A stretch of DNA of 64,000 bases from Alloascoidea hylecoeti (taxonomy: Eukaryota), in contig BCKZ01000017.1 of NCBI GenBank assembly GCA_001600815.1, positions 98,390 to 162,389 on the forward strand. Direction: 5' to 3'. The stretch's first letter is position 1. The number at the start of each line of letters is the position of its first letter. The notes below the pieces were generated by a model. It was not told where the DNA came from, made no database searches, and saw nothing but the letters and a program-made list of their open reading frames with translations. The position numbers and the translations under genes are program-made. Positions 9,933-54,234 of this stretch are shown here, one piece after another.

Positions 9933-10721
9933 TTATCTGTAGTAAACGCGTTCTTTTCTTCTTCGTGAATATTCTTCTTCACTTCCACTTCCACTTCCAT
10001 CGTCTCGTTCTCGTTCTCGTTCTCTGGGACGATACGAACGTTCTCGATCATGTGTTCTGCGGCGGCGTCTGTAATCGTCATAGTCGTGGTGGTATTCATT
10101 TTTTTCTCGTTCTCGGTATCTTGATCTGGGGTCAGTCGTCGAGTGTCGATGTCGTTCACCACTTCTATCTCTCGATTCTCTTACTTCTCTCCGTTGTTTT
10201 CTTTCTAGTTCAAGTTCTCTTCGTTTCTCTTGGATCAGTTGTTCTGGAACACCATCGCGGTCTAACTGGGCTGATAATAATAAATCCCATAATTCAGTAC
10301 AAAATTTCGATGCTTCTTCAGGGATGAACTCTCGTAATTGTAGTTGGATTGATTTTATATTCGGCTGAATGAGTTAAATTTATTAGTTTGATTTATCGTG
10401 ATTGAAAATTTATATACTACTTAGTACTTACATATTGTGCCTGCTTTAATAATTCCAAAACAAAGTCAATTGTGATATCATCATCCGGTAAATATTCATT
10501 TAACTATAATATATTCAAAAGTTGTTAATATGATTTACTTTTGTAGTACAATTTGTATTTTTATAGCTTACCTTCTTACCAACCCAAGTTTCCATTATAG
10601 CCTCATTCACTTTACTTAAATCGACTTTTTCATCAAAAGAAGCAGGATATTTATATTTTGTGAATTCCCTTTGTTCGCTTTTTGAAACTTCAACATTTGT
10701 CGTTAGGAAGTTCTTAAACAT
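9933..10721 (-). CDS. PWI-domain splicing factor with Arg/Glu/Ser-rich tail (SRRM1/SRm160/Pwi1-like); exons 10721-10572, 10503-10432, 10364-9933
   Basis: Not called as one ORF in the track. Introns 10571-10504 (GTAAGC...TATTAAC...TAG) and 10431-10365 (GTAAGT...AACTAAT...CAG) join YPASFDEKVDLSKVNEAIMETWVGKK|LNEYLPDDDITIDFVLELLKQAQY|PNIKSIQLQLREFIPEEASKFCTELWDLLLSAQLDRDGVPEQLIQEKR (PWI domain), then an RE/RS-rich tail ending at TAA 9935-9933. Confidence 0.88.
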
Positions 10722-10959
10722 CGGTAATAATTATAAATTTATAATGGTGTATTTCAAATTTATAGATATTTGATGTGATGATATGTACTGCAGTCTGTTA
10801 TTTACTCTATCATGATTTTATTCCCAACTCCATTTAAATATACTCAATTATCTGGCAGTTTCTATGGATTTTTGTAGGTGAACTACTCGAATACTCATAT
10901 TCAAAAACTTAATTAAAAAATTAAAAATGCCATCCAATTATAATTTTTTTTTTCCCTTT

Positions 10960-11135
10960 AAAATTTTGCAATGTGTCTATTTACCTCCCTATTCACCGGA
11001 CCTAAATCCGATTGAGCTATTTTGGGCAGCATCAAAATCTCGTGTTAAACGTGAGCTTGTTGATAAAGAGGAGGAATTAATTGAAAAATCGTGATGCTGT
11101 GAAAACCATACTAATAGAATATTATAAAACTTTTT
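10960..11135 (+). mobile_element. Tc1/mariner/IS630-family transposase C-terminal relic
   Basis: From 10978 reads YLPPYSPDLNPIELFWAASKSRVKRE, the diagnostic DDE third-motif region, then a frameshift and truncation at ~11135. Confidence 0.85.
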
Positions 11136-34049: not shown

Positions 34050-35120
34050 AATCAATCCAATTGAAACTTTAATAAATAAAACATTCCTTGTTTTTGCAGT
34101 TCTAGCTCAATATACCCAGGTAATAGAAATCTTCTTCTTTTTTTATCAAAGGTAATCAGCTCAATACCTTCTTTCAATTCTTGTGGGTTTGCATTAGGAA
34201 AATTAGCACGTATGAATAATACCGTCCCCAGTAGAGTTTGAATATTTAACTTCAACCATTTCTTTTTCCTTTTCAATTTTTAAATAATCATCCTTAATAT
34301 TTCTGTTTGTAATAATGAAATGTATGATACTGTTCCATAGTAATACATAGTATCTTTAAAACTTATATTTTTATCATCGTAATAGCCAAATGCTCTAAGA
34401 AATTTCTCAACCTAATAAAACAACAGCTGATGAAATACAGATGAAAGTTTGTTTATTTCCTTCGCCATCAGAACATTGAGAAAAGAGTGGATAAAAGTGA
34501 CTTGTAATAAATCATAATATATTTATAATAAAATTGTTTCCACATGTTTTGATTTTAATTAATAATAATAATTTGTCCAGATGCAGTATTTGGTTCAGGA
34601 ATATATAATTTCAATCTCATTCATTCTCTTTTAAATCAGCTATACCACGTATTTGTTTCTTCTTATTAAATCAATTTCAATTCCAGCAATATCATATATA
34701 TAAGAACTTACTGCTCTTTTCCAAAAATACGCGTACCTTTCCATTTGATTTAAAAAAAATTTGGCTCATATAATTGCATATTATCAATATCTAAAAGTAA
34801 AACATTTTCAATAGATGATATTAATAATTCCAAAAATTCATATTGATACTTCCAAATTTAAATAATTCTGAAGTTTCTGATCTTAATCTATAAGGTAGAA
34901 CATTTTGTACAAATTTTTGGGAACCATTTTGCATGCATAGCTTTGAATCATTTATATTCCTCATGAATTGACATAATTATTTCAACAGGTAAAATATAAT
35001 TTAAACCATTTAGAATATATAGTGATATAATAGCTATCGGTATATAACGGATTATTTTTACCATCATCGCCATAAACAATACCACAGCCTGAATATAAAT
35101 GATATTCTTTTGTGAAAACT
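34050..35120 (-). pseudogene. Decayed alpha-1,2-mannosyltransferase (Mnn2/Mnn5, GT71) pseudogene
   Basis: Motifs in order across several frames: SGCGIVY, LPVEII, LLISSIENVLLLDIDNM, FWKRA..YDIAG, IPEPNTASGQI, FYPLF/SQCSDGEGNKQTF, VLFIRANFP..KRRRF. They are collinear with the intact gene at 49973-51793 and broken by many stops and frameshifts. Confidence 0.85.
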
Positions 35121-35607
35121 GGCGCTAGTTAGCATGATAATTTGCAAGATAAAATCTTTGTTTCTGTTCTATATCTATCGTAAATAAATGCATAAATACC
35201 ACCACAACATAAAAAGCATAATATGGTATCGCTAGAATATCCTGTAACTCATGAATTTGTGTTCATTCATCATCGATGCCGGATTATTTAGGTGATATCC
35301 CACCGGATTATCTTATGTATATCAGTCATATCATGCATAATGATTCTTCAAATTCAAAGATCATATGGAGACTATTGGTTAATATTTCGGGACTGAGCCT
35401 TAAGCTTACTACGATATAAAATGTGTTTAGCAATAATAATAAGGGAATGTAATGATGTATGGAAATTATAATTGTCTCATTTGATTAATATTTTGCCAAT
35501 CATGAACTACATGTATATGCTAATATATTGTACAAAACTATGAAGTGTTTTTCAACTGACAATTTCAGTTTACTATCTCTCTCTTTTATTAAAATCACTA
35601 CCCATAA

Positions 35608-38600
35608 TTACTCCACCACAACCCAACCACTGGCCTGTTTCTTTTGCTTCACGTGAATCACTGGCAACTCCCATCCCACCCCTGGCCCCAATCTAGGTTT
35701 AACCCAACAATCTCTTTCCGTGGAACTGATCATTTTAGGTGCATATGGGTAACCAAGTGGCTTAGAGTATGCCAATAATGAACTCTTCTTCGCCACATTA
35801 GTTAGTAAGGATCCCGTAATATCGACCAAGGGTCTCAATCTGATTTTTGAAGAATCATTTCCATGAAGTGACTGATAAACAAGATAATCCGGTGGGATAT
35901 CACCTAAATAATTCAGCATTGATGATGAATGAATATACACAAATTCATCATCTTCACGAGTAATTCGAGATTCCAGCAAGGTCTTGTAAGGAACATCGAT
36001 AACTCTATTCCGTGAGGGTTTCTTAACTTCCACTGAAATGAGATCTGCTCGGGCTGCAATTTGATCTATGAATCCAGCTGCAATCATTTGTTTTAATGCC
36101 TTTAACTGAACTTTTGAAGGTGGTTTTAATTTGAGGCTCTTCTTAACAATTTCATTTCCATTAATAGCAATAGATTCTTTTTGTGTATTAATAGCAACAA
36201 TGTAGTGAAGTTGTTTTCTCAAATTTTGAATTTCCTGCATGATTTTATTCTTCAAAAATGCCCTCTTTACGTAAATTTCAGCATTTCCCTTTTCAGCCTC
36301 ATAATCGTAAGCACATATAGCAGATAAAAGTTTCATAGCATCACTTTTCGAATCTAATTTGGAGAACATAGCATGTGCTTTGAAATATTTTTGTCTTAAC
36401 TGCCGTTTTTCCTCTTTATCTAAAGAATCGGTATCATTGGAGTCGTCAAAGTTTGATATGCCCAATTCCTGCTCATAGATAAAAGGGTCTCCAACAGATA
36501 AACCTGCAACAATAGCAATAATGTATGGCATGCATTCAAATTGGTCCCCAATTATCAACATCTTAGAATACCTTGGTGATATTGGGAATAAACTCATATT
36601 TTTTCCAAGTTCTGTCAAGTGTTTGTGATCATCAAGTGCATTTAAATATATCAATAACTTTTCGGCTTTCGCAAGATGTACACGATCTGGTGGAGTTGGG
36701 AAAGGAAATTTTATTACATTGTCAATTCCCATACTTTTCATGAGCAGAACTACACCTTCAACGGGCATTCTTAAAATTTCTGGTTTTGTGAATTGATCAA
36801 AATCACTCTCATAAACTGCTGATGAGTATAAGCGATAGCAATGACCTGGTCCAGTTCTACCCGCTCTTCCTGCTCGTTGTCCTGCACTTGCTTTACTAAT
36901 CCACTTAATATTATATCTTTGAACACCTGTATTTTCGTCAAATTCACGCTCCTTGACACGACCACAATCGACCACATATCTAATTCCTGGGATAGTCAAC
37001 GAAGTTTCAGCAACATTTGTTGCAATAATGCACAACCGGGAATTTGCAGGTGGATCTTGGAAAACCTTCATTTGTTCTTTTGTTGGTAATAATGAATATA
37101 ACGGCAAAACAAATAAATCTTCAACTTGGTCTTCTTCTTCCTTAGCAAGCACTTCTTCGAACCCATCTTCTTCATCACTATCAGCGTCATAGTCATCAAC
37201 TTCACTTTCAATCCCACCAATTTTCTTTTCTTCGAAATCATGTTCTTCGTTTCCAAATTCTATCTCTTCAACCTCTGTTGTGGTATTTCTTGCTGAAACT
37301 TGAACTTTTATATTTTCAGAATCTGATACTCCCTTTATTTGGTCTTTTTTCTTATTAGAAAATTCTTTCCGTAGTCTTTTCACAATATTTGTAATTTCGT
37401 TTTGACCTGTCATAAATACAAGTATACCACCAGGTGGTAAGCGTTTATGGATCTTGCTAACCTTTTTAAAAGCCTCCTCGGAATAATTGGGTACCGTTCG
37501 TTTGTTGAAATGAATTCCAACAGGGTATTGACGTGCTTCCACGTTGAGAACAGGTGGTGGAGTTTGAAAAAGAATCCTATTTTCTGTAAAATCACCCACT
37601 CTAAGAGTAGCGGACATAATAATAAGTTTTAATGGTTGTATTAATTTATCTGTTTCGCTCATTTCTCTCCGTAATTTCACTACTCTACTAAGCATTCCAA
37701 TTAAGATATCAGTATTCACATTTCTTTCATGGGCTTCATCAATAATAACAACTGAGTAATTTTTTAATAACAAATCGTTCATCATCTCACGTAATAAAAC
37801 ACCATCAGTCATAAATTTAATGGCAGTATCTTTCTTAACAGTGCTATCAAACCTAATTTGATGACCAACTCGGAATTTATGGGTTTCGCCAAGTTCAGTA
37901 GCAACTCGTTCCGACATAGCAACGGCAGCGACTCTTCTAGGTTGAGTTACTCCTATCATGCCTTTGGATTCGGAACTAGTACCAAATCCAGCTTCGAATA
38001 GAAATTGTGGTACTTGTGTAGTTTTACCAGAACCTGTCTCACCACATAGAATAATGCAATCATTATGATAAATAGCCTCCATGATTCTATGTTCTTCTCC
38101 AACAACAGGTAATTGAAGGCGCTGTTCTTGAATTTCATTGGTTCGTTGGACATCAACAAAGAATGCTTTACGAGTGCTTTTTTCATCAATTGGAATAAAT
38201 TGTTCAGGAGGTGTAGCTTCTCGATCCTCAGGTCTATCTATTGGTTTATAATCAGCATGAGATTGAATAATTGGGGTCATAATAGGTTCACTATCACCAT
38301 TCTGTTCTTTTATAATTTTATTGGCCCACATCTTAAATCCAGCACCTTTAGATGTTGGGACTTCTTCCTTTTCATTCTCATTGTTACCATCATCATCCGA
38401 TCCTGATTCTGATTCAATGGATGCATTATTTACTACTTCAAGGTCTTTCTGAACTACTTCTTCTAATGAGGAATATTTTTCATCTTCAAAGCCTAACCAT
38501 TCTTCTACGGATTCATTATCACTGGCAGATGAATCCTTACTATGATCTGAAGCTTCAGATCCACCTTCAGATTCAGATTCAGATTCGTCGGGTTGGCTAT

Positions 38601-39453
38601 CGCTTTCATCACCTGAACTTTCAAAATCCATCATCTCATCCTTCTTGTGTTTTCTTGCATTTTCAGCTTCAAGTCTTGCACGCCAGGAATATTTCATCTT
38701 TCCTGATTTTTGAACTTTGGGCAAGTTTTGAAATGTAAAACTGGACAATTTCACTCCATCTTTAGTTTGTGGTCGATGGTCTATGAACTGAGATTCAATG
38801 ATATTATCTTCATCTTTAGGTATTCCATGTTCATGACTTAATGAGTCGGTTGGTTTTGTTACTTCTTCCATAGTATCATTCCAATCTTTGACCTCTCGTT
38901 CTTCGTACAAGAGAGCTTTAGTCTCCTCATCTCCTCTTCCTTGTCTTTCTAATTCCAAAGCTTCAAGTATTTTTTCTTTCTTGGTCTCTTTACCTACCCC
39001 TAATTGTTTAGAACTGGAAAGTAATGAAGTATCAAAAGATGTATGTGATAATTTTTCTAAAATGATATTCTTCTCTTCACGCTTGAGTTGTCGTTCCTAA
39101 ATATTGATCTTGTTAGAGTAGTGCTTGAAAAGTATAAATATTCATATATTTGAACTTACGATGTACTTATCAAGTCTCTTTCGTTTGTTTCTTGATATTT
39201 TGTTCTCTTTGACAGGAATTAATGACTCTTCTAGTTTCCGTTTCCTTTCAGCCTTTTCTTCTGATGTCATTGGCAATAGTATTTCACTATTTGGATCCAC
39301 TTCTTTTGTTTCATTAACTGAATCATTGGCGTCTTGATTATTGTCCTCCTCATCACGATGGAACTGCTTCTGGCGAGCACGACGTAATGTGTCTTGCCTT
39401 TTCACCGTACCTGCCCTGGCCTTTTCATTAAATCTTTTTCTATATTTTCCCAT
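35608..39453 (-). CDS. ECM16: DEAH-box RNA helicase Dhr1/Ecm16 (18S rRNA processing); exons 39453-39160 and 39096-35608
   Basis: N-terminus MGKYRKRFNEKAR; a 63-nt intron (39159-39097, GTAAGT...CTCTAAC...TAG) joins KRLDKYI|ERQLKREEK; GETGSGKT, DEAHER, MSAT and QRAGRAGR motifs. Confidence 0.95.
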
Positions 39454-39759
39454 TTTTCATAAGGCCGTCTTGGGAGGAATACTGGTTGTGGTAACTTTTC
39501 AGACTTTTCAAATTTTCCTTCTGAAAAATATCAATGAGTATTGACACGTGATACAACTTTTATCTATTACAAAAAAATATACATCATTAAAGAATAACAC
39601 TTTTAATAGATTTGATTTTCAATATTTATGTTCTTTATTCGAATGGAAACAATCAATAATAATAAAAATAATAAAAGGCAACAAAAGCAATCATAATTTA
39701 ATGAAAAGTTTAATGGATTTCAAGCCTTCAACAAATATATACAAATGATAATAATAATA

Positions 39760-40823
39760 ATTTTGATACATTAAAACCAAATGTATATGCATATGAAATT
39801 TTAACAAATGAAGAATTTAAATTTTTAAAACCTGATATTAGTAAATATGTCGATTATTTAAATATTTCAAAAATAAAAATGAAATGTTAATGTTAACAAT
39901 AATAGTGCCAGTACAAATGATATTAATTCAAAATAATAATATTGAACAAGCTACTAATTATCTATTAGAAAATCAAGATGCAATTATAGTTGATGATTCT
40001 CAAAATTCTGAAAAAATAGAAGAATCACTCTATATCCATCAACAACATTCTAAATATGATATTGATGATAGTTCAAATAATGACTTTAGTAATGTTTCCA
40101 TTATACATGGTAAGAGGCAACAGGAAACAGAATTATCAAAAATCAATGGAGATACAAAGAGTAAAACATTAACAGCTGCACTAAGATTGATTTATGAAGC
40201 TGATGGTGATGAAAGAGATGATACATATAATGATGTTGAAGTTCTTAAAACAACAGCAACTACAAAAAGAAACAAAAATAGTAATAATAATAATAATAAC
40301 GTTGATGAGGATATTGATGATGATGATGAAGATAAAAAACAATCTTCAACATCACAATATGATAAAAATGAAGAATTTCTTTGGGATTTATTTAAACGTG
40401 ATAAATCATTATTTGAAAAATCATCAAGAAAATCAAAGATAAGAAAAGATTTGAAAGATTCAACTAAACGGTCAGATGAACAAATTGAAGGATGGTGATG
40501 AATGTTACTTAAAGAACTACGAAGAATAAAATTTTTAAAAGAAAAGTATTTGTTTCAGGGAAATATACAAAATAGAGAAAAACAATAATTCCTGAGGATG
40601 ATGGTGATGAAGGGAGTGATGAAGAAGTTGATAGTGGACTTTCGACAAGTCCTGCAACTAACACTACCTCAAATACAAAATCAAATTCAAATACGAAACC
40701 AATGCAAATAATCCAAAAGATGATAAACGAACACATGCCAGAAATGCACAGAATAAAGCTAAACGGGTCAATCGTAACAGAAAAGCCGGTTTTGCTAAAG
40801 GGATGAGTAAAGCAGGAATATAG
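39760..40823 (+). pseudogene. CUE3: CUE3/RQT3 (ASCC2-like) pseudogene, N-terminally eroded
   Basis: CUE tail NNNIEQATNYLLEN; KTLTAALRLIYEADGDERDDTY; SDEQIEGW followed by TGA TGA (40496-40501) where the family continues (x)RML; after frameshift(s), C-terminal ARNAQNKAKRVNRNRKAGFAKGMSKAGI* (to 40823). Confidence 0.8.
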
Positions 40824-41668
40824 CTTGATATATATTAATCTCATGTTTTAAATCTACTATTTATAAAAGTGTTAAAGAGTTACTATCTGAAAAATGTTTT
40901 TGCTGAGATTTAAAATTTGTTACAATTGATTATTCTAAGATCTATCCATCAAACTAGACAACTAAATTGTTCTTAAAGAAACAAAACCCAAAAATTAGTT
41001 GATAAACAATTTTAAATAAAAAAAAATACATTTCACTTATAATTTAGACCAAGTTGATTTGGCGAATGTAATAAAAATACTTTTGTCAATCGAATTGAAT
41101 ATACAGTAAATTATATCTCATCGTATGAAAATAAGTCATTATATTAAGACTTCAATGACTTCTGTAGATACAGCCAAACACTTCATTTTGGCCAAATAGT
41201 GGGGTAATACTTATCTGGCCACCTTTCCGAGTGCAATCAATGATGTATTAAATTTTGGGCGAGCTTCACGGGTGTCAAAGTATTAAAGTTGAAGATCCAT
41301 TAATATTGAGAGATTATAATTATAGATCCCACTCAATAATACAGGAATCGAAAATATTTTCTTCATGAATTCCATAGGGGTGGATTCCAGAGTACGATCA
41401 AGACAGAAACATAAAAATGTCAACATTCCTAGCCTCCAATGAACTCGGGATCGGATCCTGAAACGAATATTGACCTCCTGATCATCTACAATCATGTGTA
41501 TGTAAATTTTTATCGTTATTTCTACTATAGTTAGTTATATTACTAAGTAGTGCATAAGTACTAATTTGTTTATTCATCTTTCTTTATTTTTTAATTAATA
41601 ATAGACTTAATTCAGTTCATCATAAACATATTTAAAATAGTTAAGTAAAATATATAACATCAGTGAAT

Positions 41669-42410
41669 TTATTTCTTTTGTCCTTGAGCAGTGACAGCAG
41701 CGGCACCAGCAGCACCAGCTTCAGGATCCAATAATATGATGGTTTAATTGGTTTTAAATCATCATCTAATTTATAAACTCATGGAATACCAGTGAGTAAA
41801 TTCAAATTAGCGATATCAGCATCACTAAATCCATCCAAAGTTTTAACCAAAGCACGTAATGAATTTCCATGAGCAGCAATTAAAACAGTTTTACCTGACA
41901 ATATATCTGGTTTGATATCTGATTCCCAATATGGTAATAAACGTTCAATAACCAATTTTAATGATTCAGTCTTAGGTAAATCATCTCCTGGAACATCGGC
42001 ATATCTTGGATCATTAGCTTGCGAAAATTCATTGTCATCGTGAATAACTGGTGGTGGAACATCAAATGATCTTCTATAAGTCTTGAATAATTCAGGTCCA
42101 AACTTTTCTAAAGCATCTGCTTTATCTTTTCCTTGTAGATCTCCATAATGACGTTCATTTAATCTCCATGTTCTCTTAACATCAATCCAAAGTCTATCTG
42201 AGACATCCAAAGCAATGTTAGCAGTTTGAATAGCACGCGATAGCTTGGAGGTGTAACGGGCTTCAACCCAGATTCCTTCAAAAATTCTCCGGCACGATGC
42301 GCTTCCTTTTCACCAGTAGGAGAAAGACGAACATCGACCCAACCAGTAAATAGATTCTTTTCATTCCAATCGGATTGACCGTGACGAACTAAAATAAGAG
42401 TATGAACCAT
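41669..42410 (-). pseudogene. GPM1: Phosphoglycerate mutase GPM1 pseudogene
   Basis: Full-length homology from [23 protein letters not shown] to the C-terminal Ala-rich tail. Lesions: a frameshifting deletion at ~42256 ([14 protein letters not shown]), TGA at 41781-41779 (TGIP*V) and a 1-nt deletion at ~41731 (YY/LDPEA). Confidence 0.92.
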
Positions 42411-42931
42411 TGTTGTAAGATGTTTATAGTTTGTAGTGCCAATTGATCTGAGAATTGCCTGAAACAAAAAATCAGAAGGAAGAAAAGGTGGGGTTTTCAT
42501 TATAATTTGTCCTTAAGTTGAAATGCAACTTTCCCCAAACAACATGTAAAGGAACAATCATGACATCGTCATTATTTTGGGTGTTCCTTTGGTTATTGTT
42601 TCGCAAGTACATTCAACATTTCTTGGATGCATTTTATATTGGTTCCTGAAAAACATTCCACAGCTCTTGAACTAGCCAGTTCGGAATTGTATTTCATTCT
42701 TACCGCACATTTGATATCTTATTATGTTTATGACTTCTAGAACTTTTCCTATTAATAGCTTTTGGATTTATCTATATAAACGTAAGATAAATCCCACTTT
42801 AAAAGGGAGGAGGTTAGCTTTAATACATTTTTCCTGTTTAGATCTTGATCGTCGTCTGTATCTGATTCCGCCAGTTACATCTACTGTAAGCTATTAAGTC
42901 ATTAGTAGCTTACTTCACACAACAAAGTTAT

Positions 42932-43004
42932 GGTGTTGTGGCGCAATGGTGAGCGCATCGGATTTCGGTTCCGAAGGTTGCAGGTTCGAGTCCTGTCAAC
43001 ATCG
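42932..43004 (+). tRNA. tRNA-Arg, anticodon UCG (reads CGA), intronless
   Basis: Cloverleaf: acceptor GGTGTTG/CAACATC, D-stem GCGC/GCGC, anticodon stem TCGGA/TCCGA with loop TT-TCG-GT, T-arm GCAGG-TTCGAGT-CCTGT, discriminator G. A T5 terminator-like run starts at ~43052. Confidence 0.93.
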
Positions 43005-43592
43005 GTCCATTGTGAAGCGGAATACTCCTGTTCATTTCTGGATTTCTTCTCTTTTTGCCTTTTTGTTTGAAAAAAAACAATTGTCCATACACCCCCCACC
43101 CCCTGATCAGAAAAAATCCCACGGCCCTGATTCTCCGATACCGATAAATATATATAATCCAGAGATTGTTGTACCTGTGGGGTATAACAATTTTTTTTTA
43201 AATAATTCTCTGCTCATAATTTGTATCCTCTTAATTATAGCTATTAATTATATGCATAACTATACCCAATTGGGGCGTTAAACAGGATCAACTAAGTCGA
43301 TAACTACTAAAAAATGACCAATTTTATTTAAACGCCAGTTGCAATTAATTTCTCTTCAAATGACTAAATAAGTCCCTGTACTGCCGATCATAAATATTAA
43401 TAACCATCCGCTTTCAGGTATAAAAACCGCATAATCAACACTCAATATAGAAAAGATGCCTCAATAAAAAATTTGACAAATAAATGAAAATATAAAAGTA
43501 TATACTCCTTTGTGGTTTTAAGAGATGAGGTAAATTGTATTAAAAAAAGGGCATTTACAGTTGATTATTGATTGTAGGGTAGTTTCATAAAT

Positions 43593-45443
43593 TTATGGTT
43601 TCCAGCGGATTAATAGTTTTTCATCCAACCATTCATCAATTCCTTCTCTAATAACTGTTCTTGTTGATTTATCTTTCACATCAAAAACGTATTTATTTAT
43701 CCTTATATACTCAATATTTGGTTGTGCTGCAATAATTATATTAACAACTTGTTCATACCTAACCCAATGATCTAGTAAATATGTCGATTTAGTACCCAAA
43801 TAAGATGGTCCTTCTTCACCAAATAAATCAAGATATTTTAATTTTGGTAAATTTGAAACCAATGCTCCAATATAGGGTTGAATTGAAGAATTATGAATCC
43901 TTAAACCTATTAACTTTTTGCATTCAGCTATTTGTAATAATAATTTAATTGATATTAATTTATAAGGATCACAAAAAGATGATTCTTCTCTTGAATCAAT
44001 TGATAAATGCTTTAAAGTATTTTTATGAAATAAAATTGATTCAATATATTTTTCACATAAATTATTCCAAGATGAATAATTTGATAATTTTGTAATATTC
44101 CAATGAATTTTTAAATCAAGACTTTTTAAATTTTTAAAACTATAAATAAAATTTGATAAACTATCAATTAAATTTTCTTTTATATCAAGAGTTAAAACAT
44201 TAACATTTGGCATTTTATATTCTAATCTTTTTAAAAAGCTTGGTATTAAATTTCTTCTTTGTTCATTAATATTATTATTATTATCATTACCAAAACCTTG
44301 AACTTCTGTTATATTAGATAATGAAAAATTAATTAAATGATTTAATTCCATATTATTAATTAATAAATCAGCATCTTGTGGATTAACTAAAGTACCAACA
44401 ATTCCAAACCTTAATAAATTTAATTTTTTCTTAGAATTTTGAAAGACTTTAAAAAATGATGTTAATGAATTAAGATCTAATTGTTCTGATGATAAATGAA
44501 CCATTGAAAAAGAAAATGCAGTTGATATTTCATGAGTATTTGGTAAATCTTTTGCTATATATAAAGATCTTAATTTTTCAATGTTTTTGGAATTACATAA
44601 CATTTTAGCAATTAATTTTAAAATATCTGAATTAACATAAGGTGATATTGATAAATATCTTAAATTTGAAAAATTCATTTCAGATAGTTTTAAAACCCAT
44701 GAACCAGGTCTTAAAGCCATTTCTAAATCCAATGTATCGATTTTATCTCGATTTGGTAATGAATTTAAAATTTCAATAGTCATTTCCGGTGATGATTTCC
44801 AAATTAACGATTGTAAATTTATTAATTTTGGAAATATATTAAGTACTGCTTGAGATACTTCATATTCTGGTAAATCAAGACTATTATTACATTCAAATCT
44901 TTTTATAAATTTTGATTTAAAACCATCATCTTTCTTTAATGTCCTTAAACATGCTCTTATTCCTCCAACTGATCTAACCAATGTGTATGCAATATCAATT
45001 GTTGCAATTGGGAATTCGGAATATTGTTGACTTCCGTAGTTTGAACTATGATAAAGATCCACTTGAAAACTTTTATCAGAATCATTATAAAATGGCTCAT
45101 GAATTATTGATCTTTTCTTATAAATTTCTTTATTAAAATGCCGAAGTGCTGGATCAATCACTATACATTGATAAAGGCGTGATATTGTGGATTCAAATAA
45201 GGATCTTGAAGTTAAACATAAGTGAAATGCATCTGCCTGGTTACACTCTCTGGATATTTGTTCTCTTATTTCGAATGGTAATGTATCCAGATATACTGAA
45301 GATGGTGATCTTTCAATTTTTGGAATGTCTGATATAAATCCTGTTGTAACCGAAGGTTGAATGATTCCAGAGCTTATCACCATAGACCGTGAGTAAACAA
45401 ATGGGAGAAGATGAGAAACTCCTCCGTAGTAAGGTTCATCCAT
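43593..45443 (-). CDS. F-box protein with degenerate leucine-rich repeats
   Basis: F-box YLDTLPFEIREQISRECNQADAFHLCLTSRSL; LRR-like LxxLxL repeats (NLQSLIW, NLRYLSI, NLKSLDL, KLKYLDL). Start placed at ATG 45443 (MDEPYYGG); uncertain. Confidence 0.82.
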   Translation of the reverse strand: MDEPYYGGVSHLLPFVYSRSMVISSGIIQPSVTTGFISDIPKIERSPSSVYLDTLPFEIREQISRECNQADAFHLCLTSRSLFESTISRLYQCIVIDPALRHFNKEIYKKRSIIHEPFYNDSDKSFQVDLYHSSNYGSQQYSEFPIATIDIAYTLVRSVGGIRACLRTLKKDDGFKSKFIKRFECNNSLDLPEYEVSQAVLNIFPKLINLQSLIWKSSPEMTIEILNSLPNRDKIDTLDLEMALRPGSWVLKLSEMNFSNLRYLSISPYVNSDILKLIAKMLCNSKNIEKLRSLYIAKDLPNTHEISTAFSFSMVHLSSEQLDLNSLTSFFKVFQNSKKKLNLLRFGIVGTLVNPQDADLLINNMELNHLINFSLSNITEVQGFGNDNNNNINEQRRNLIPSFLKRLEYKMPNVNVLTLDIKENLIDSLSNFIYSFKNLKSLDLKIHWNITKLSNYSSWNNLCEKYIESILFHKNTLKHLSIDSREESSFCDPYKLISIKLLLQIAECKKLIGLRIHNSSIQPYIGALVSNLPKLKYLDLFGEEGPSYLGTKSTYLLDHWVRYEQVVNIIIAAQPNIEYIRINKYVFDVKDKSTRTVIREGIDEWLDEKLLIRWKP

Positions 45444-46925
45444 GACTTGATATAACAATAGTGAGTTGTTTAATATTATATATGGTAGATGATATAGTAT
45501 ACGTACTGTGTAACTTATAATTGTGGTAGTGTTAAAATAGGAATTAACCCCTGAGTTTATCGGGAATCCGTAATAAATAAGGAAGTGAGCAAAATCGTAT
45601 AATAGTAGCAATGAGTCTGTGTATCAAAAAAACAGGTTACGGAATGAAATAATCAAAGAAGTTCAATACAAAAGTAACAGGTACGGTATAATATAACATG
45701 AAGTTAAGTACGGATTTCAGTACAACCATGTACCATCTTATGCATGATATTCTAATCGTCACGTGTGTGGACGTTCGATTATGTTAGCTCCTACTCTTAT
45801 ATTCTGAACAAGCACATCTATGCTGATTTCGTTGGGTATTCTCACGATACCTTTTGATTTCAATGGAGTATGAAGGTTGTGTGTCACCTAATTATACTTC
45901 TAACAATATAATTTTACAATAGAAAACTAGATTTTAGTGACTGAATATTATAACTGAGCACTAGGCGCAAAACGTAACAATATAATTTTATAGTCTAGTT
46001 GTTAATTATAACGTTGAATGGTATATTTAAAAGTATATATATTAACTAAGATATTTCCAGATATCTAGATATCTAGAGATAGAGACGGAACGGCGTTAAC
46101 GTTGTGTATATGTACAATATATTTTAGCGGGATGAACTACTAATACACTGTTATACGGTTTGAAAAGCCGTCCTCGATCAATATTAATGAAGGAATATCT
46201 AAGCAAATGAGAAAATAAATATTTATTGTACTTTTCAGCCGATATTACCCAATCATAGATGAGTCCATATTTCCCCTCTAATAAGAAACTCCAACTTGGT
46301 TCCTCTTTATAACCTTACATCACTAATTAAATGTGTATATAATTAAAAATTCTGGCATATTTGATTCAACTAATCTAAGTTAAATGCCTACCTCGAGGAA
46401 TTCGAAGTATTAGCGGTTCATCAGAAATCTTGCATTGTTAGATTAAACTAAAACAAACATGTGGGAACTTAAGCTTAAGACTAAACATGGTGTAAAAAGT
46501 AAAGTTTTAATGAAAAACGGCTGGTTGAGAACCTAACTAATTATATTTATAAATGTGGTTAAGATGAAATTCGGAGTATTAGGGAGTAACCAGTTTACTA
46601 ATGTATAATTAAACCTAACTTAACGATTAAAAGAGCATGCTTAATATAAAATAATTAATAATATACTTACAATCTCCATTAATTATGTATTTTCATAAAC
46701 TACCGGTAAGCGTTAAGCGCTAACAGAACTTTATACATAAATAAACAATCAATTGTAATACATTCCTATCCTCTACTTTAATTGGTCAATTCTCAAGACT
46801 AATATTAATGTCCTAAAGAAAAAAAATATTCTTGATAGAAGGTATATATTATTTAAGAGAATTGAATAGCTCTAAATAGATTCAATAATATTTCAAGTTA
46901 AATCAGTTATGATTACAATTTTAAA

Positions 46926-48635
46926 ATGAAAATAATTCTAATAACTTGTTCAATTGGTTTATTCTCTTCATTAATATCAGCCTGGTCTCCAACTAATTCC
47001 TACGTTCCTGGTATTGTTGAATGTCCTCCAGAAAATCTAGTTAGAACTGCAGATGGTTTAAGTTCATGTGAAAAGGCTTGGATTGAAAAAAGACATATTG
47101 TTACTGATGCTGCAATGTTAGATTATTTTGCTAGAGCAAATCTAACTGATTTTGATCATCATGGGTTCTTATCAAATGTTTCTCTTAATATAGGTATGGC
47201 GTTTTCTGGTGGTGGTCTTAGAGCAATGTTAGCAGGTGCTGGGCAATTTTCAGCTCTTGATGGTAGAACCGTAAATTCAAATACAACCGGGTTAGGAGGA
47301 TTAGTCCAGGCATCAACATATATGACTGGCTTATCAGGAGGAAGCTGGTTACTTGGTACTCTTGTATTAAACAATTGGACATCTATTGAAGATATTTTAG
47401 AACCAAATTCTAAAATTTGGAATCTTAAATATAATCTGTTAAATCCTGGTGGCTTAAATCTAATAAAATCTTTTAAATACTGGAACAATATTTTGAAGGA
47501 AGTTGAAGATAAATTTGATTATGATTTCCCTGTAACTTTAGCAGATCCTTGGGGTAGAATGTTATCGTCCTATTTAATAGACATGCCCATAAATTACAGC
47601 TCTGGTTATACCTGGTCAGAAATTCCTCAACTTGGTGCTTTTGTTAATCATGATATGCCTTTTCCAATTATTGTTGCAGATGGACGATATCCAAACACAA
47701 AAATCATAAACTTAAATTCAACGGTTTTCGAAATAAACCCATTTGAATTGGGATCCTGGGATCCAACATTGAAAGCATTTACAAACGTTAAGTATTTAGG
47801 AACAGCTACAAATAAAGGTAAACCAATTAATGATTTATGCTTTGCGGGTTTTGATAATGCCGGATTTATAATAGGTACTTCATCTTCGTTATTCAATGCA
47901 ATAGTTCAAAAAATTGAAGAAAAGTTACCTCTAAAGAAAATTCTCGTAAAGATAATCGATGGAATTAAACGTAAGATCGGTGTTCTATATCATGATATTG
48001 CAATATATCAGCCAAATCCATTTGCAAATTTTAATTCTTTAAGCTCAATCACATCTTCTAAATTTTTATCTTTAGTTGATGGTGGTTTAGATGGACAAAA
48101 TGTTCCTTTATATCCATTGCTTCTAAAGGAAAGACAGGTTGATATGATATTTGCATTTGATAATTCAGCAGATAGAAATAACTGGCCTAATGGGGATTCT
48201 CTTATTTCCACATATGAAAGACAATTTGGAAAACAAGGCATTGACATGACTTTCTCATATGTCCCGGATAATGAAACCTTCTTGAAACTAAACCTAACTA
48301 AAAAACCTACATTCTTTGGCTGTGACGCTTTAAATTTAACTGACTTACCATCAAGTAATATTCCCCCTTTGGTTGTTTACATTGCAAATAGAAGATTTTC
48401 TTTTAATTCAAATGTTTCAACATTTAAATTGAAATATTCAGAAACTGAAAAACGATCCATGATTAAAAATGGTTATGAAGTTACAAGCAGAAATAATTTA
48501 ACATTAGATAATGAATGGAATGCATGTATAGGTTGTGCTATAATTAGACGTGAACAAGAAAGAAGAGGAATTGAGCAAACAGATCAATGTAAACGATGTT
48601 TTCAAGAATATTGTTGGACAGGTGAGATTTGCTGA
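46926..48635 (+). CDS. Secreted lysophospholipase / phospholipase B (Plb family), 569 aa
   Basis: Signal peptide then AWSPTNSYVPG; SGGGLRAM, GLSGGSW catalytic Ser motif, LVDGGLDGQNVP, C-terminal ACIGCAIIRREQER...CKRCFQEYCW. Confidence 0.94.
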   Translation: MKIILITCSIGLFSSLISAWSPTNSYVPGIVECPPENLVRTADGLSSCEKAWIEKRHIVTDAAMLDYFARANLTDFDHHGFLSNVSLNIGMAFSGGGLRAMLAGAGQFSALDGRTVNSNTTGLGGLVQASTYMTGLSGGSWLLGTLVLNNWTSIEDILEPNSKIWNLKYNLLNPGGLNLIKSFKYWNNILKEVEDKFDYDFPVTLADPWGRMLSSYLIDMPINYSSGYTWSEIPQLGAFVNHDMPFPIIVADGRYPNTKIINLNSTVFEINPFELGSWDPTLKAFTNVKYLGTATNKGKPINDLCFAGFDNAGFIIGTSSSLFNAIVQKIEEKLPLKKILVKIIDGIKRKIGVLYHDIAIYQPNPFANFNSLSSITSSKFLSLVDGGLDGQNVPLYPLLLKERQVDMIFAFDNSADRNNWPNGDSLISTYERQFGKQGIDMTFSYVPDNETFLKLNLTKKPTFFGCDALNLTDLPSSNIPPLVVYIANRRFSFNSNVSTFKLKYSETEKRSMIKNGYEVTSRNNLTLDNEWNACIGCAIIRREQERRGIEQTDQCKRCFQEYCWTGEIC

Positions 48636-49224
48636 ACAAAAGATTATGTATTTAAAGTTTGTAGCTAAAAATGAGATTGATACAAACCAGTATTGAGGCA
48701 GATAAGATGTTGTGGGTATTGATCATATGTAATCTTCTGTAAAAAACTTATTTTAATTCGATATTTCTTTGGATCATACACTTCTGACATTCACATTATT
48801 TGAATTATATTATTATTAGGTTCCAGACAATGATATTTTGTATAGCTCATAATAAACCCTATTTATTCTTAAGAAATCATTATAAATATATGTAAGGATA
48901 AAAGTACTTTCAACTCAAAAGTTATTAATCTCTTCGTAATTAATATGCATGCACATATTGGTTTTCGAGTTGCCAGATTAATCACTGCATATGCAGCGTT
49001 AACGGCAATTATTGTAGTATCATATCATTTTGATAAAATATAGCGATTTTGATTGGTTCATTAAGCCATCTTTTCCCTCTTTTAAAAAAAGTTGATGAAG
49101 CACCAGAAACAGGTATATTAAATAACTCTATGTCCATTATGAATATTCCCTCCCAAATTTCTTGATCTTTTATCATCAATAATTGGGGTATATAACATTG
49201 ATCTAAAGTTTCTACTATTATTAA

Positions 49225-49225
<1 letters not shown>

Positions 49226-49270
<45 letters not shown>
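49226..49270. repeat. (ATT)15 microsatellite
   Basis: Perfect trinucleotide run; reads as poly-Asn on the minus strand within a possible gene relic. Confidence 0.9.
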
Positions 49271-49272
<2 letters not shown>

Positions 49273-49972
49273 CTGGACTCTTTATATTTGATTCTGATGT
49301 TAATGAACAACTTAATAATCCTAAATCATTTATAATTGATCATTGTGATATAATGGAGTTAAATTACCATCTGAATTATTACAATTGATGGTATATGTAA
49401 TAGGTTCATAGAGAGACTCCTCAGAGTCCTCACCATCTAAAAATATTGGTCAGTACATGTATTACCTAGTTTTCTGCTAAATATTCCATTTAAGACGTTA
49501 TGATATGCGATCCAATTATATATTAATTAACAGTTTTCTTTTACTATCTGATACGAGAGGAAATTAATTCGGATATATATGAAAGAGGAAATTAAGAGAA
49601 ATCCGTATTAATCGGCCTAAGGGAAATTTTTTACTTAATTTTTTCATGGAAGAAGTTTAAAGGATAAAAACAAGTGATAGTGGTCAACCATTTTTTGTCT
49701 CATTAATAAAAAAAAAAGACCCTTACAGCAGGTATAATATAATTAATAATTTATATTTATATGTGTATGTTTAAGAGTCAAGATTAGAATTATATAATGC
49801 TATTACTAGTACAGAAAGAAAATTATTGGTAAGCAACAATTATTGTAACTTTTAAGATGTAGTATCGTTACTATTAAAATAGGAAATAAAGACAAATTTT
49901 AAAAATCCAATATAATGAAAAGAATTAGAAAAAAGTGATTTTTTAAATCAACAAAATTGTAATATTAAGTAT

Positions 49973-51793
49973 TTATTCCATGTCTTTAGAAGTTCTTTCT
50001 AAATATTCAACATGATCAGTTGCAATTGAACAAACATCTTTTGTACTTATATTTTGTTCTTCAAATGTTGAAAATTTAAAATCTTTTGCATAATCACAAA
50101 TTAAATATTTTATATTTTGCCATGTTATTAATTCAAAATCATAACCAACTATAAATCTCATGCCTGTACCATATATTCTTCTTCTTTCTCCATTTTCTGA
50201 TATTATAACTTTATCATTGAATAATCTAACTGGATTAAGCTTTGGAAAGTTTGCATGGATAAACATAACACCGGATTTTATATCGTTGTCTTCTTCCCTT
50301 TTGTGTTTTAAATTTTTGTTTTTTAATGGTGGTGATTGTTCCTTTTCATCCATAGTTTTATAGTTTGATTCTGATTCTGTAATTAAGCCAATTGTTATAT
50401 CCTGAGGTATTAATGTTTGAAAATACTCTATTAGTGAACCAAACATTGTATTTTTATTCTCAACTAATTTTTGATCAGTATTCATCTCTTCGTAGTGACG
50501 TTTTGAAAAACGTTCTTTTCCACTGGAAATACTGGAAGTACTTATCTCAATTTGTTGTTCATCTCTTTTCTTTTTCAAATATATTAGATAATCTTGTACA
50601 GGGTCATGTTGAGCCATACCAGTACCATGAAATTCACCATCTTCAAAATAACCAACAGCACCGAGGTTTGTATTCACTTGATAATAAGGTTCGTCTAAAC
50701 AAGCGGCAGCAGCAAGGAATGTTTCTTTGTCACCTTCACCATCGGATCCTTGTGAAAATAACGGGTAATAATAATCAGGACCATAAATATTATAATATAA
50801 AGATAATAATAAAGATTTCCAATGTAAAGATTTAGAAAACATTAACATTCCTGATTCAGTTGTTGGATCTGGTAATGTTCCTTTAAGATCATGAAATGGT
50901 ACTTCATTTAAATCTAAAATTGATAAATCACCTCTAACTCTTTCATTTGAAATTTCAAAACCTGCAATTTTATAATAATCTGGTGAAGTTGCTCTTCTCC
51001 AAAAATCCGGCCATGTAACTAAACCAGTTCTTACAAAAGGATAAGATGTTAATAAAGAATTTAAAGATCTCGTTGGCATATTATCAGCATCAAGATATAA
51101 TATATCATCAAATGACGAAATTAATAAGGCTAAAACTTTATACTGATAGCCTCTTATATTAAATTCATTCATTGTTTTTTCACCAAGTTCATCTTCAAGA
51201 ACTATACATTTTGCATCATAATCAGGAGCAACTTTTTCACAAAAATCAGCCTCATATTCTTTTCGAGTTGGTATAATAATTTCAATAGGTAGAGTAGTTT
51301 TTAAAGATCTTAAATTATGCATTGATAACAAAACAAGCCATGTATATCTATCACCACCGACATAAACGATACCTTTACCACTTGCACCTCTTGTAACTAA
51401 ATCATATAACGCTCCAGATATTGGGGAAGAAATTGAAATAGATGTAACAAATTCTGAATGGACTTTTGATAGATTCTCAATTTCCTTTGTAGAAACGTCA
51501 AGAAAGCTATATAAGTAATCTTTTGAGAACACATGCTCGGGTGGACTATCTGCTCCAGCATGATATATTTTTTGATCGGTTTTATATTTCTTTAGTGGGT
51601 CAATTGAAGGTTTCGTTTGTTTTAATAAATCAAACAAAGGACCATAGTCTTTCATATTCGGATTATTCGTCTGTTTAACATTTAAGATTTGTATCTGGGA
51701 TACCCCGTGAGAATGCCGGGTTATGATGAAAATCAAACATAATAAGGATAATATGACAAAAACAGACCTTTTCCGGCAATTTAGCTTTACCAT
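49973..51793 (-). CDS. MNN2: Golgi alpha-1,2-mannosyltransferase (Mnn2/Mnn5, GT71)
   Basis: Type II membrane anchor after ATG 51793; GKGIVYVGG, GYQYKVLALLISSFDDILYLDADNMP (DxD), WPDFWRRATSP, TESG, YYPLFSQG..GEGDKETF, MFIHANFPKLNP. The MNN2 versus MNN5 assignment is uncertain. Confidence 0.85.
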   Translation of the reverse strand: MVKLNCRKRSVFVILSLLCLIFIITRHSHGVSQIQILNVKQTNNPNMKDYGPLFDLLKQTKPSIDPLKKYKTDQKIYHAGADSPPEHVFSKDYLYSFLDVSTKEIENLSKVHSEFVTSISISSPISGALYDLVTRGASGKGIVYVGGDRYTWLVLLSMHNLRSLKTTLPIEIIIPTRKEYEADFCEKVAPDYDAKCIVLEDELGEKTMNEFNIRGYQYKVLALLISSFDDILYLDADNMPTRSLNSLLTSYPFVRTGLVTWPDFWRRATSPDYYKIAGFEISNERVRGDLSILDLNEVPFHDLKGTLPDPTTESGMLMFSKSLHWKSLLLSLYYNIYGPDYYYPLFSQGSDGEGDKETFLAAAACLDEPYYQVNTNLGAVGYFEDGEFHGTGMAQHDPVQDYLIYLKKKRDEQQIEISTSSISSGKERFSKRHYEEMNTDQKLVENKNTMFGSLIEYFQTLIPQDITIGLITESESNYKTMDEKEQSPPLKNKNLKHKREEDNDIKSGVMFIHANFPKLNPVRLFNDKVIISENGERRRIYGTGMRFIVGYDFELITWQNIKYLICDYAKDFKFSTFEEQNISTKDVCSIATDHVEYLERTSKDME

Positions 51794-52333
51794 GTTTTTG
51801 AAGATGATAATATTAGCAAGCAAGTTTCTTAATACTGAGAACGTTTATGTCTGCTTATGTAATCCAATCTAATAAAGGTGGGCTAAATTAAGTCAAATGA
51901 CTGTGATCTGCACGGATTGTCGCTGAGAAGAATAAACGAAGCCCCATCTTGTCTAAAAATGAGAAATATACAATGAAACGGAAACCCGAATGGAAAGTGG
52001 TGTTTCAAACTTCAAGTCTCTGACCTTAATACAGTAAGTTACATACAAAAGGAGGAATGGAGATAAAACGGTAATTGTATGCAACCAAAGTGGCCACACC
52101 ATATTACATAAATTATTATATTTTCTTAGGTAATCCTTTTATATACATCCGTACATCCACTATCTCTCAAAACGGAAATTGAAGTCACATAGCCCATGCT
52201 CACGTATACCGCACATATTCTTCCCGGCACACTCAAGTCAGACTGATATATACACACGCTTCTAAACTTTGATCATTGAAAATATCCAAAATTACTCTGT
52301 AGTAGTAACGACAGTCTGACAATTTGAATCAAC

Positions 52334-53203
52334 ATGCCACGTATGTATCGATTTTACGCTGTGTTTTGTTTTATCTCATATCAATCAATATTTGAGGATG
52401 GTTAGAAATGTTAAAGGTGAATCCGACGAGAGGATGAATAATTGTTGAAAATGAATGTTACCACTAAAATATCGGATCGTACTATGTTTTATCAACAATG
52501 AATGAATTATTATACACACATCGACTCCACAAATCATCTATTGATATGAATAATCAAAACATTACAGAGACTCATCTATAATTATCTTTCAGAATTAGCT
52601 TACTAACTAAACTGATTTATAAATATAGGTGCACCAAGAACATATTCTAAGACCTACACCGTCCCAAGACGTGCATACGATTCCACTCGTTTGGACGCCG
52701 AGCTTAAGCTCGTTGGTGAATACGGATTAAAGAACAAGAGAGAAATCTACAGAATTGGTCTCCAACTTTCAAAAATTCGTCGTGCTGCTCGTGATTTATT
52801 AACCCGTGATGAAAAGGATCCAAAACGTTTATTTGAAGGTAATGCTTTAATTAGAAGATTGGTTAGAGTTGGTGTTTTAAGTGAAGATAAAATGAAATTG
52901 GATTACGTTTTAGCTTTACGAATTGAAGATTTCTTGGAAAGAAGATTACAATCTCAAGTTTTCAAATTAGGATTAGCAAGATCTGTTCATCATGCTCGTG
53001 TTTTAATTAGACAAAGACATATTCGTGTCGGAAAACAAATTGTTAATGTTCCTTCTTTTATGGTTAGATTGGATTCACAAAAACATATTGATTTTGCTTT
53101 GAACTCTCCTTACGGTGGTGGTAGACCAGGTCGTGTGAAGAGAAGAAACCAAGCAAATGCTGCATCAAAGGGAGATGGTGAAGCTGAGGAAGAAGAAGAG
53201 TAA
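52334..53203 (+). CDS. RPS9: 40S ribosomal protein S9 (uS4); exons 52334-52340 and 52629-53203
   Basis: ATGCCAC|GTATGT...TACTAAC (52601)...TAG|GT gives [12 protein letters not shown]...[19 protein letters not shown]...[14 protein letters not shown]. Confidence 0.97.
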
Positions 53204-53547
53204 ATGATTAACAATCACAATATAAAAAAAGGTTCATTTATTATCTATCTATCAACAGAATACATTCAATCCTAAATTCATTATTAACTTAAATGCTTTG
53301 TTCAATTACGTGATTGAAATTGTTAATATCAAAGTATTTTTATGTATAGTAAATACGGTCGATTATATATACAAAATATAGTAATTTGACTTATTTATCG
53401 CCCAATTATTATTCCTTTAAACATATTTAGATCATACAGTGATGGTGGTGAGTGTATGCGCAGTAATTTATTTAAAATTGAGTATATCTAACCACTCTTA
53501 ATTAAACCTCCTAGAATACAATCACATACCCATAGAAGTATTAAACA

Positions 53548-54234
53548 ATGGGTAAAAGGTAATTATAAGATTTATTTATTGATTGGTTGTGATATTGTGG
53601 GAGTGGAGGTTTGATAATTTTTTCGTGTTTATATTTTATCAGAGATGAAATAATCACAACTGAACATTTAATTATAAAGAGAAATCCTAAAAATATCAAA
53701 ATGACATTTACATTTTAAAAGATCAGTTATAAATTGATATTTGTAGCGTCAGAAAATATAGATCAATCAAACCCATCTTATAATCTACAATATCAGACGC
53801 TCGTCTTATAAACTTGAACCATATGTCTGACTTGTTTATGACAAATAGGTAACATAACTTTATAAATAGTCGTGGTTATAGATATTGTTGATATTAAAGC
53901 TAATGGTTCAGTTCAAAAAGGCGTCATAAATATTACCATGGTAAAACAGGACGTGTCTATAATATTACAAAATCATCAGCTGGTGTTGATGTCAATAAAA
54001 TTGTTGGTAATAGATATCTTGAAAAGCGAGTTAACCTAATACTGGAACATAGAACTGAATTGTTAAGCAGGGTAAAAGAAAATGGTTTCAAAAAGTCAGA
54101 AGCAATCTAAAGGTGAACTTGTTCAATTAAAGAGACAACCTGTTAAACCAAGAATTGCACATCTTGTTTCAACGGAAGATAATATTCCCCAAACCTTGGT
54201 TCCCGTAACCTGTTGCTTATGAACTTTTATTTAA
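53548..54234 (+). pseudogene. RPL21: 60S ribosomal protein L21 (eL21) pseudogene retaining its intron (53559-53869)
   Basis: Exon 1 ATGGGTAAAAG|GT. Exon 2 reads S-RGYR/DIVDIKANGSVQKG/HKYYHGKTGRVYNITKSSAGVDVNKIVGNRYLEKRVNL..EH/..KGELVQLKRQP..PR.AHLVSTEDNIPQTL, with internal deletions and several frameshifts. Confidence 0.92.

Follow-up and report, generated by a model that had tools for sequence, protein, structure and literature searches.

Four decayed conserved genes within about 20 kilobases of an Alloascoidea hylecoeti contig: possible loss of redundant copies after duplication

Reciprocal gene loss after the whole-genome duplication (WGD) of the Saccharomycetaceae was reportedly described by Scannell et al. 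in 2006, and Marcet-Houben and Gabaldon are said to have treated that event in 2015 as a WGD or a hybridisation. The genes GPM2 and GPM3 of Saccharomyces cerevisiae are non-essential, diverged paralogs of the phosphoglycerate mutase gene GPM1. A survey of eight yeasts traced the majority of 871 pseudogenes to duplications that were species-specific and mostly segmental, and only four to the WGD (Lafontaine and Dujon 2010, PMC2876123, accessible part), and Pichia sorbitophila (Millerozyma farinosa) is a young interspecies hybrid in early genome resolution (PMC3284337, accessible part). Here we describe a stretch of 64,000 nucleotides (nt) from Alloascoidea hylecoeti (positions 98,390 to 162,389 of contig BCKZ01000017.1, assembly GCA_001600815.1; called the window here, with all positions in its own numbering), in which an MNN2-like gene, a CUE3-type gene, GPM1 and RPL21 lie decayed within about 20 kilobases (kb). 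The preliminary description of this DNA had named these four as pseudogenes interleaved with intact genes. All four are indeed disabled, at or near the positions first assigned to them, with matches far beyond chance, and the intact DHR1, a 616-residue open reading frame (ORF), phospholipase B (PLB), an MNN2-like gene and RPS9 lie in between. The relics appear to be of mixed age: GPM1 is recently dead, and RPL21 and the MNN2-like gene are deeply decayed. We propose that they are redundant copies left by repeated DNA-level duplications of multi-gene segments at several times rather than by one event, a reading we hold with confidence and doubt in equal measure.

As with GPM2 and GPM3, extra mutase copies stand here beside a working gene, but the copy in the window is of the GPM1 type and is broken, not merely diverged. 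Loss after the Saccharomycetaceae WGD has in common with this locus a dead copy in one place with a live copy elsewhere, intact and dead genes interleaved, and neighbours with second copies. However, its relics are nearly gone (four, by the accessible part of PMC2876123), whereas one relic here has only three lesions, and the lineage is another one. The duplicated, non-processed pseudogenes of Lafontaine and Dujon (PMC2876123, accessible part) resemble ours in their frameshifts or stops, in having a functional paralog (here for GPM1) and in the lack of retro-processing; flanking non-coding DNA was duplicated with the gene, and the relics themselves were possibly duplicated. They differ in that the window has four conserved, housekeeping-type relics in 20 kb among essential genes and no sign of a subtelomeric location, and in that its RPL21 relic would be the copy at the presumed ancestral position. 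Pichia sorbitophila, as the accessible part of PMC3284337 portrays it, is a budding yeast outside the Saccharomycetaceae with two diverged gene sets, and would be the model to follow if a hybrid origin were true. Unlike that hybrid, the window has several relics in heavy decay and a GPM1 pair with 13.5% protein divergence, and a comparable event would have to lie much further back.

Evidence on DNA outside the window comes from searches of protein collections and from public contigs aligned to the stretch. Ten sequencing runs were listed, six of which contain the stretch, and four of these (X1 to X4), from three samples, were compared: X1 and X3 come from the same sample, X4 is from a further isolate, and the fourth, X2, is a wood-decay metagenome. 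The data are assembled contigs, not raw reads, and the summed contig depth is a rough measure and not a copy number. Contigs with at least 80% nt identity to the window (80–95% likeness) are called second-copy contigs here, and statements on them refer to the listed contigs. Over its four long listed pieces, about 9,000 letters in all, X4 deviates from the window at 20 and is therefore a different strain. The contigs of each isolate run total 24–27 million letters, about twice the usual yeast genome.

The GPM1 pseudogene occupies 41669–42410 on the minus strand. It aligns over its whole length, in three frames, with an intact protein of 249 amino acids (aa) from an NCBI assembly (P0002), with identities of 44/51, 152/182 and 18/20. 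Three lesions disable it: seven nt are missing between 42256 and 42257, at 41779–41781 a TGA stands in place of a Leu of P0002, and one nt is lost at about 41731. Two of the frames match Pfam His_Phos_1 (PF00300; expect values (E) of 6.4e-16 and 8.4e-13), the central piece matches residues 53–210 of the yeast mutase 1qhf_A in the Protein Data Bank (E 6.7e-70), and the RHG motif is kept in the N-terminal LVRHGQS. The relic is 75–79% identical to GPM1 of other yeasts. P0002 is the closest of 5.8 billion proteins, at 87% over the query piece, the next best reaching 78%; a metagenome scan with P0002 gave no relative closer than 75% identity among the 80 retained of 367, and the organism is therefore absent from that collection.

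Both the deleted form of GPM1 and an undeleted form with seven extra letters behind 42256 are present in all four runs and thus in all three samples. The undeleted form accounts for 49.6 of a total depth of 68.3 in X1, 19.7 of 32.2 in X4, 10.6 of 22 in X2 and 125.6 of 177.8 in X3. The seven letters restore KPDILYTSK, which is the sequence of P0002, and this indicates that an intact, working-type GPM1 is present elsewhere in the same organism. Judged by sequence, that copy is probably P0002 itself. In the four runs, the summed depth of GPM1, a rough measure and not a copy number, comes to about four times (3.3–5 times) the single-copy contig depth, and the gene seems to have more than two copies. 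The 5′ flank of the relic (42412–42494) also aligns to a second copy, with seven differences in 42412–42462. At 41920, a synonymous position of the relic, the window has T where every contig in 4/4 runs has A, a difference due either to an error in the assembly or to a variant private to it.

The relic and P0002 are 86.5% identical (212/245), a protein divergence of 13.5%. They have 12 residues in common that differ from all four yeast outgroups, and they are therefore sister paralogs of this lineage. Set against the same outgroups, lineage-specific changes are symmetric, with ten on the relic branch and nine on that of P0002. At sites conserved in at least 95% of 118 other mutases, the relic has five changes and P0002 one, a mild excess; the changes in the relic include Pro to Leu in the PTGIP motif. 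Symmetric change together with a mild excess at conserved sites points to a long joint constraint followed by a short relaxed phase in the relic. We read the pair as old, and the window copy as one that was selected for most of its history and died recently.

The CUE3-type relic (39914–40823, plus strand; found by tblastn and a protein-collection search) comprises only the C-terminal 45% or so of a CUE-domain protein that we take to be CUE3, a name that none of the searches returned. A search of 1.84 billion representatives with its 217-aa open frame (39845–40495) brought up 84 proteins at E ≤ 1e-3, the best at 6.9e-20, and the frame always aligns at homologue residues of about 335–545 (of about 600–665). 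Overall, the relic corresponds to residues of about 335–626 of CUE-domain proteins 624–665 aa long. The CUE domain lies at about 315–378 in all six top homologues checked; only its last helix is recognisable in the relic, and Pfam detected no CUE domain in the reading frames of the relic. The N-terminal half (residues 1 to about 335) was found nowhere in the window. Similarity by tblastn continues through two in-frame TGA codons at 40496–40501, the frame changes near 40700, and the conserved C-terminal 35–43 residues lie in another frame at 40689–40820. A Protein Atlas search with the ORF of the relic gave no usable match, and NCBIfam held no family for two CUE3-type homologues. The left edge of the relic coincides with the end of the unique DHR1 contigs (39712–39820), and the relic may never have been complete.

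A second-copy contig covers the 3′ part of CUE3, with three additional nt at 40594–40596 and one (A) behind 40700. The extra A joins the two frames of the relic, and the frameshift is therefore specific to the window copy. The non-coding spacer downstream (40824–41141, delimited by contig differences) is likewise alignable at 80% or more to a second copy, which differs by +2, +18 and −6 nt at 40880, 40937 and 41141. Variant and window forms of the spacer have similar depth; both occur in 4/4 runs at 40880 and 40937, and the deletion at 41141 occurs in 3/4. Between the alignable spacer and the 3′ end of GPM1, the stretch 41150–41640 has single-copy depth, is richer in guanine plus cytosine (G+C) by eye and has no Pfam match; possibly the duplicated segment has been broken up here by an insertion.

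The RPL21 (eL21) pseudogene lies at 53548–54222 on the plus strand and was delimited by Pfam, by matches in the Protein Data Bank and by eye. Pfam PF01157 (Ribosomal_L21e) matches with E 2.7e-14, and ribosome chains match eL21 residues 53–119 (E 8.3e-21, with a 6-residue gap) and 115–153 (E 6.7e-9) in two different frames. By eye, a third frame holds residues of about 33–51, and hardly anything of the first 30 codons can still be recognised; decay is severe in the N-terminal third, and the C-terminal end has changed. An ATG-GGT-AAA start at 53548, also read by eye, stands about 235 nt before coding similarity resumes, with a probable intron remnant at about 53559–53785 whose 5′ splice site is degenerate (GTAATT). 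RPL21 had been said to keep its intron and hence not to be a processed copy; the distance between the start and the rest fits a retained intron, despite the degenerate 5′ site. The same holds more widely, as the GPM1 5′ flank and the spacer downstream of CUE3 align to second copies, so that these relics too are non-processed, and we regard all four as such. A 3,506-nt contig of X3 is identical to the window over 53107–54299, which covers the RPL21 relic, and no second-copy contig was seen for it.

Upstream of this relic lies the intact RPS9 (52334–53203, plus strand; exon 1 52334–52340, intron 52341–52628, exon 2 52629–53203), with a canonical intron (GTATGT...TACTAAC...TAG). Contigs break within exon 2 (52741–53107), and at 53092 T and C occur at similar depth in X1, X3 and X4, with only C in X2. 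There is therefore a second, nearly identical coding copy of RPS9; the RPS9 intron and 5′ region are unique. RPL21 next to RPS9 is presumably the arrangement of both S. cerevisiae sister regions.

The MNN2-family (Mannosyl_trans3) relic at 34130–35176 on the minus strand was found by tblastn with the intact paralog and by a weak Pfam match (PF11051, E 2.5e-4; 21 bits at a cut-off of 22). Pieces of paralog residues 69–539 are scattered over all three minus-strand frames, with stops and at 29–61% identity, the best group reaching E 3e-17 against a sub-database of 1.85 kb and 7.6e-9 against the whole window. The intact MNN2-like mannosyltransferase, of 606 aa, lies at 49973–51793 on the minus strand (Mannosyl_trans3, E 2.5e-82), and the family has second-copy contigs.

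Disabling lesions are thus present in all four relics, with at least two frame changes plus a gap in RPL21. A functional paralog was found for GPM1 only, the MNN2 paralog sharing no more than 35–61% identity with the relic in pieces. The preliminary description had expected working copies elsewhere. This is borne out for GPM1 by the undeleted form in 4/4 runs and by P0002; for CUE3 it extends to one site at which the second copy is in frame; and for RPL21 a live copy is expected from the essential function. Partner copies at 80% nt identity or more were seen for parts of DHR1, the CUE3 3′ part with its spacer, GPM1, PLB, the MNN2 family and RPS9. Most of the intergenic DNA has no second-copy contig, and most of it, like the bins of the MNN2 and RPL21 relics, has single-copy depth only. 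No listed contig bridges two second copies.

It is very improbable that the lesions are assembly or sequencing errors, or that the second copies only reflect a second haplotype in a heterozygous diploid. The assembly has at least one doubtful base, since every contig in all four runs contradicts the window at 41920. However, the 7-nt deletion recurs in contigs of three independent samples and is therefore not an assembly error, and in the RPL21 and MNN2 relics the indels are accompanied by many substitutions. ORFs of 569–1162 aa are unbroken in the same stretch, and in X3 and X2 the variant form and the window form each reach roughly the depth of a single-copy sequence instead of half that value. 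We rejected assembly error as the source of the lesions on these grounds: the deletion in three samples, the many substitutions, the intact long ORFs and the depth. At the level of contigs, the check for such errors named in the earlier proposal came out in favour of real lesions, the X3 contig matching the RPL21 relic exactly. Besides the GPM1 7-nt deletion, none of the contig differences listed falls at the other lesions.

Between the MNN2 and CUE3 relics lies the intact DEAH helicase gene DHR1/ECM16 (35608–39453, minus strand; Pfam DEAD, Helicase_C, HA2 and OB_NTP_bind). It consists of exon 1 (39160–39453), a 63-nt intron (39097–39159; GTAAGT...TAG with a CTAAC-type branch site) and exon 2 (35608–39096), and the splice joins LDKYI to ERQLKREEK. 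To our knowledge, the S. cerevisiae ortholog is without an intron. The ORF of this gene is itself in the protein collection (P0121, 100% identical). No second long DHR1 frame above 60% identity was found there among 7,886 proteins at E ≤ 1e-50, and no shorter match above 66% among the best 120 of 846; the nearest proteins are 50–60% identical and come from several orders. At the DNA level, a 615-nt contig on 36556–37323 represents a second copy of the helicase core, with mismatches of 9.0% and 12.5%, and another second-copy contig covers the C-terminal part with a joint at 35962/36275. The indels of the listed DHR1-like contig (−14, −145 and +6) sum to a multiple of three.

An inverted fragment of the 3′ coding end of DHR1 lies beyond the gene (35255–35416, plus strand; inverted repeat and tblastn). 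The repeat of 59 nt (35262–35320 against 35875–35933) is 92% identical and stands 290 nt beyond the DHR1 stop codon. By tblastn the fragment corresponds to residues 978–1020 (58.7% identity, E 5e-8), with a weaker protein trace at 35255–35392.

In a maximum-likelihood tree of DHR1 (a single gene, 31 sequences), the window falls outside a clade of Saccharomycetaceae, Wickerhamomyces/Cyberlindnera, the CUG-Ser group and Pichia, and it branches after the Dipodascus/Sugiyamaella group. The lineage had been placed outside the Saccharomyces WGD clade, and this single-gene tree agrees. From its position, the lineage would have acquired any large duplication separately from the Saccharomyces event. 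DHR1 has only three CTG codons, one of them at a conserved Leu, too few to judge the genetic code.

Under our proposal of repeated segmental duplications, the genome, of roughly 25 megabases, would be rich in duplications. Each relic would be redundant, with another copy doing its work, so that disabling mutations were tolerated, and its DNA would not yet have been deleted. The CUE3 3′ part, the spacer and GPM1 (about 39.85–42.5 kb) would form one duplicated segment. Its left edge would have split CUE3, leaving that copy dead on arrival, and the GPM1 copy would have been kept by selection for most of its history before three lesions recently knocked it out. The right edge of second-copy cover would be a multi-copy element (42600–42930, without assigned strand; recognised by depth and loose contig ends) upstream of a transfer RNA (tRNA) gene. 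The bin 42304–42970 that holds this element has a depth of 483.8 in X1, against 20–29 in single-copy bins (about 20-fold), and is raised in the other three runs too, and many loose contig ends fall at 42645–42920. The RPL21 relic may have kept the old position beside RPS9 after a copy elsewhere took over its role. The MNN2 relic may be an old dead member of its family, whose intact member lies 15 kb away on the same strand. We infer the boundaries of the segment, the order of events and the live copies of RPL21 and CUE3.

Several lines of evidence bear on how many events were involved. The GPM1 pair is 13.5% diverged in protein, yet the spacer is still alignable and GPM1 depth is about fourfold, which suggests that duplication took place in more than one layer, one of which may be a younger copy of the segment that bears the relics. 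The partial CUE3 copy, the inverted DHR1 fragment, two MNN2-family genes and three F-box-type genes in the window also speak for several events, as does the published preponderance of pseudogenes from species-specific, mostly segmental duplications, many of them within copied multi-gene segments (PMC2876123, accessible part). Other observations weigh against this proposal. DHR1, CUE3, GPM1 and RPS9/RPL21, which are single-copy in most yeasts, all have extra copies in one 20-kb stretch; independent small duplications would rarely hit neighbours, so at least some of the stretch may stem from the copying of a single large block. The contig totals of 24–27 million letters, about twice the usual yeast genome, fit polyploidy. 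The apparent conflict of ages is weakly founded, as it presupposes that P0002 and the contigs on the spacer represent one copy, and gene conversion or a conserved 3′ untranslated region could be the source of the alignable flanks. Finally, no listed contig joins the CUE3 part to GPM1 in the second copy, and 41150–41640 has single-copy depth only.

Some of these points lend weight to an event that covered the whole genome. The window would then be one of two homeologous blocks from a WGD or hybridisation of this lineage, with gene loss still under way, as the preliminary description had suggested; we consider this possible but clearly short of probable. It would account for second copies of parts of DHR1, CUE3, GPM1, PLB, the MNN2 family and RPS9 at 80% nt identity or more, for the contig totals and, with DHR1 branching outside the known duplication clade, for an event separate from that one. 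The RPL21 relic beside RPS9, which we take to be the order in both S. cerevisiae sister regions, is also in line with it, as are the similar mismatch levels in the listed pieces (9.0% and 12.5% for DHR1, 11.6% and 14.6% for PLB). The pattern is perhaps complementary, with GPM1 dead here and intact elsewhere, and DHR1 intact here with no second long frame above 60% identity in the protein collection; however, the indels of the listed DHR1-like contig sum to a multiple of three, so the second DHR1 copy may be dead or alive. GPM1 depth points to more than two copies, and the alignable spacer is hard to reconcile with 13.5% protein divergence of the GPM1 pair under one event. Relics of WGD are, moreover, very rare in published yeasts (PMC2876123, accessible part). 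A combination, in which polyploidisation or hybridisation was overlaid by further segmental duplications and the homeologous blocks still carry recognisable dead partners, a ribosomal protein gene and a glycolytic gene among them, is likewise a tentative alternative. A single large segmental duplication of tens of kilobases, not genome-wide, with the four relics as the products of its fractionation, seems improbable to us. It draws on the same second copies of parts of six genes or families, and pseudogenes in duplicated segments with adjacent genes are on record (62 in D. hansenii and 41 in Z. rouxii; PMC2876123, accessible part). But no listed contig bridges two second copies, the MNN2-relic, RPL21-relic and most intergenic bins have only single-copy depth, and the layers appear to be of different age.

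The rest of the window has the gene content of a typical budding yeast, with a SNF1-type kinase, a SIR2-family gene and a PPT1-type phosphatase among its ORFs besides DHR1, PLB and others. Pfam matches were found in 16 of the 21 long ORFs scanned. In 2-kb bins the DNA is AT-rich throughout (24–36% G+C), and it is continuous apart from single ambiguous bases (N) at 206 and 443. PLB is intact at 46926–48635 on the plus strand (PLA2_B, E 1.7e-184, profile positions 1–490 of 491). Its second-copy contigs are about 85–88% identical at the nt level, with mismatches of 11.6% and 14.6%, and 17 differences are listed in 46951–47069. The only tRNA gene that ARAGORN found in the window is tRNA-Arg(UCG), at 42931–43005 on the plus strand.

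Three ORFs of F-box type lie on the minus strand, at 43593–45443, 56895–58880 and 59294–60700. The first is the intact 616-aa ORF, which has no Pfam family and is F-box-like by eye only, and no second-copy contig was seen for it. The other two are confirmed by Pfam and are 40–44% identical over their N-terminal 60–70 residues or so; together the three look like a locally expanded family. An intergenic Pfam scan covered 300 of the 331 stop-to-stop ORFs of at least 35 aa outside annotated genes. In the right half (30249–55734), 4 of 150 matched, none of them outside the relics; in the left half (44–30259), 3 of 150 matched, namely a transposase relic, a frame with a PWI domain and one below threshold. 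The DDE_3 transposase relic (E 4.8e-10) and the PWI-domain frame (E 2.8e-9), at 10882–11091 and 9936–10373, are not part of any annotated long ORF.

In well-studied yeasts, conserved genes seldom leave recognisable relics, and the 871 pseudogenes of eight genomes are mostly subtelomeric family members (PMC2876123, accessible part). Given this rarity, four such relics in 20 kb, eL21 and phosphoglycerate mutase among them, suggest a genome with unusually high duplication, slow loss of DNA, or both. One small yeast order ranks first in genome size (24.15 megabases), gene number (8,732) and mean size of gene families (1.49) (PMC12322030, accessible part), and the accessible parts of PMC12322030 and PMC10833146 ascribe no genome duplication to it. 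Our literature search returned no report of an independent WGD in Saccharomycotina, and any polyploidisation or hybridisation of this isolated, large-genome lineage would be unreported in the literature searched. If the second copies proved to be scattered, the region would be a case of ordinary, if dense, decay after segmental duplication. If they were collinear genome-wide, the lineage would represent an independent yeast polyploidy at an intermediate stage of loss, between young hybrids and the ancient Saccharomyces event, and, if true, such a case would help to establish in which order and how fast duplicates are lost.

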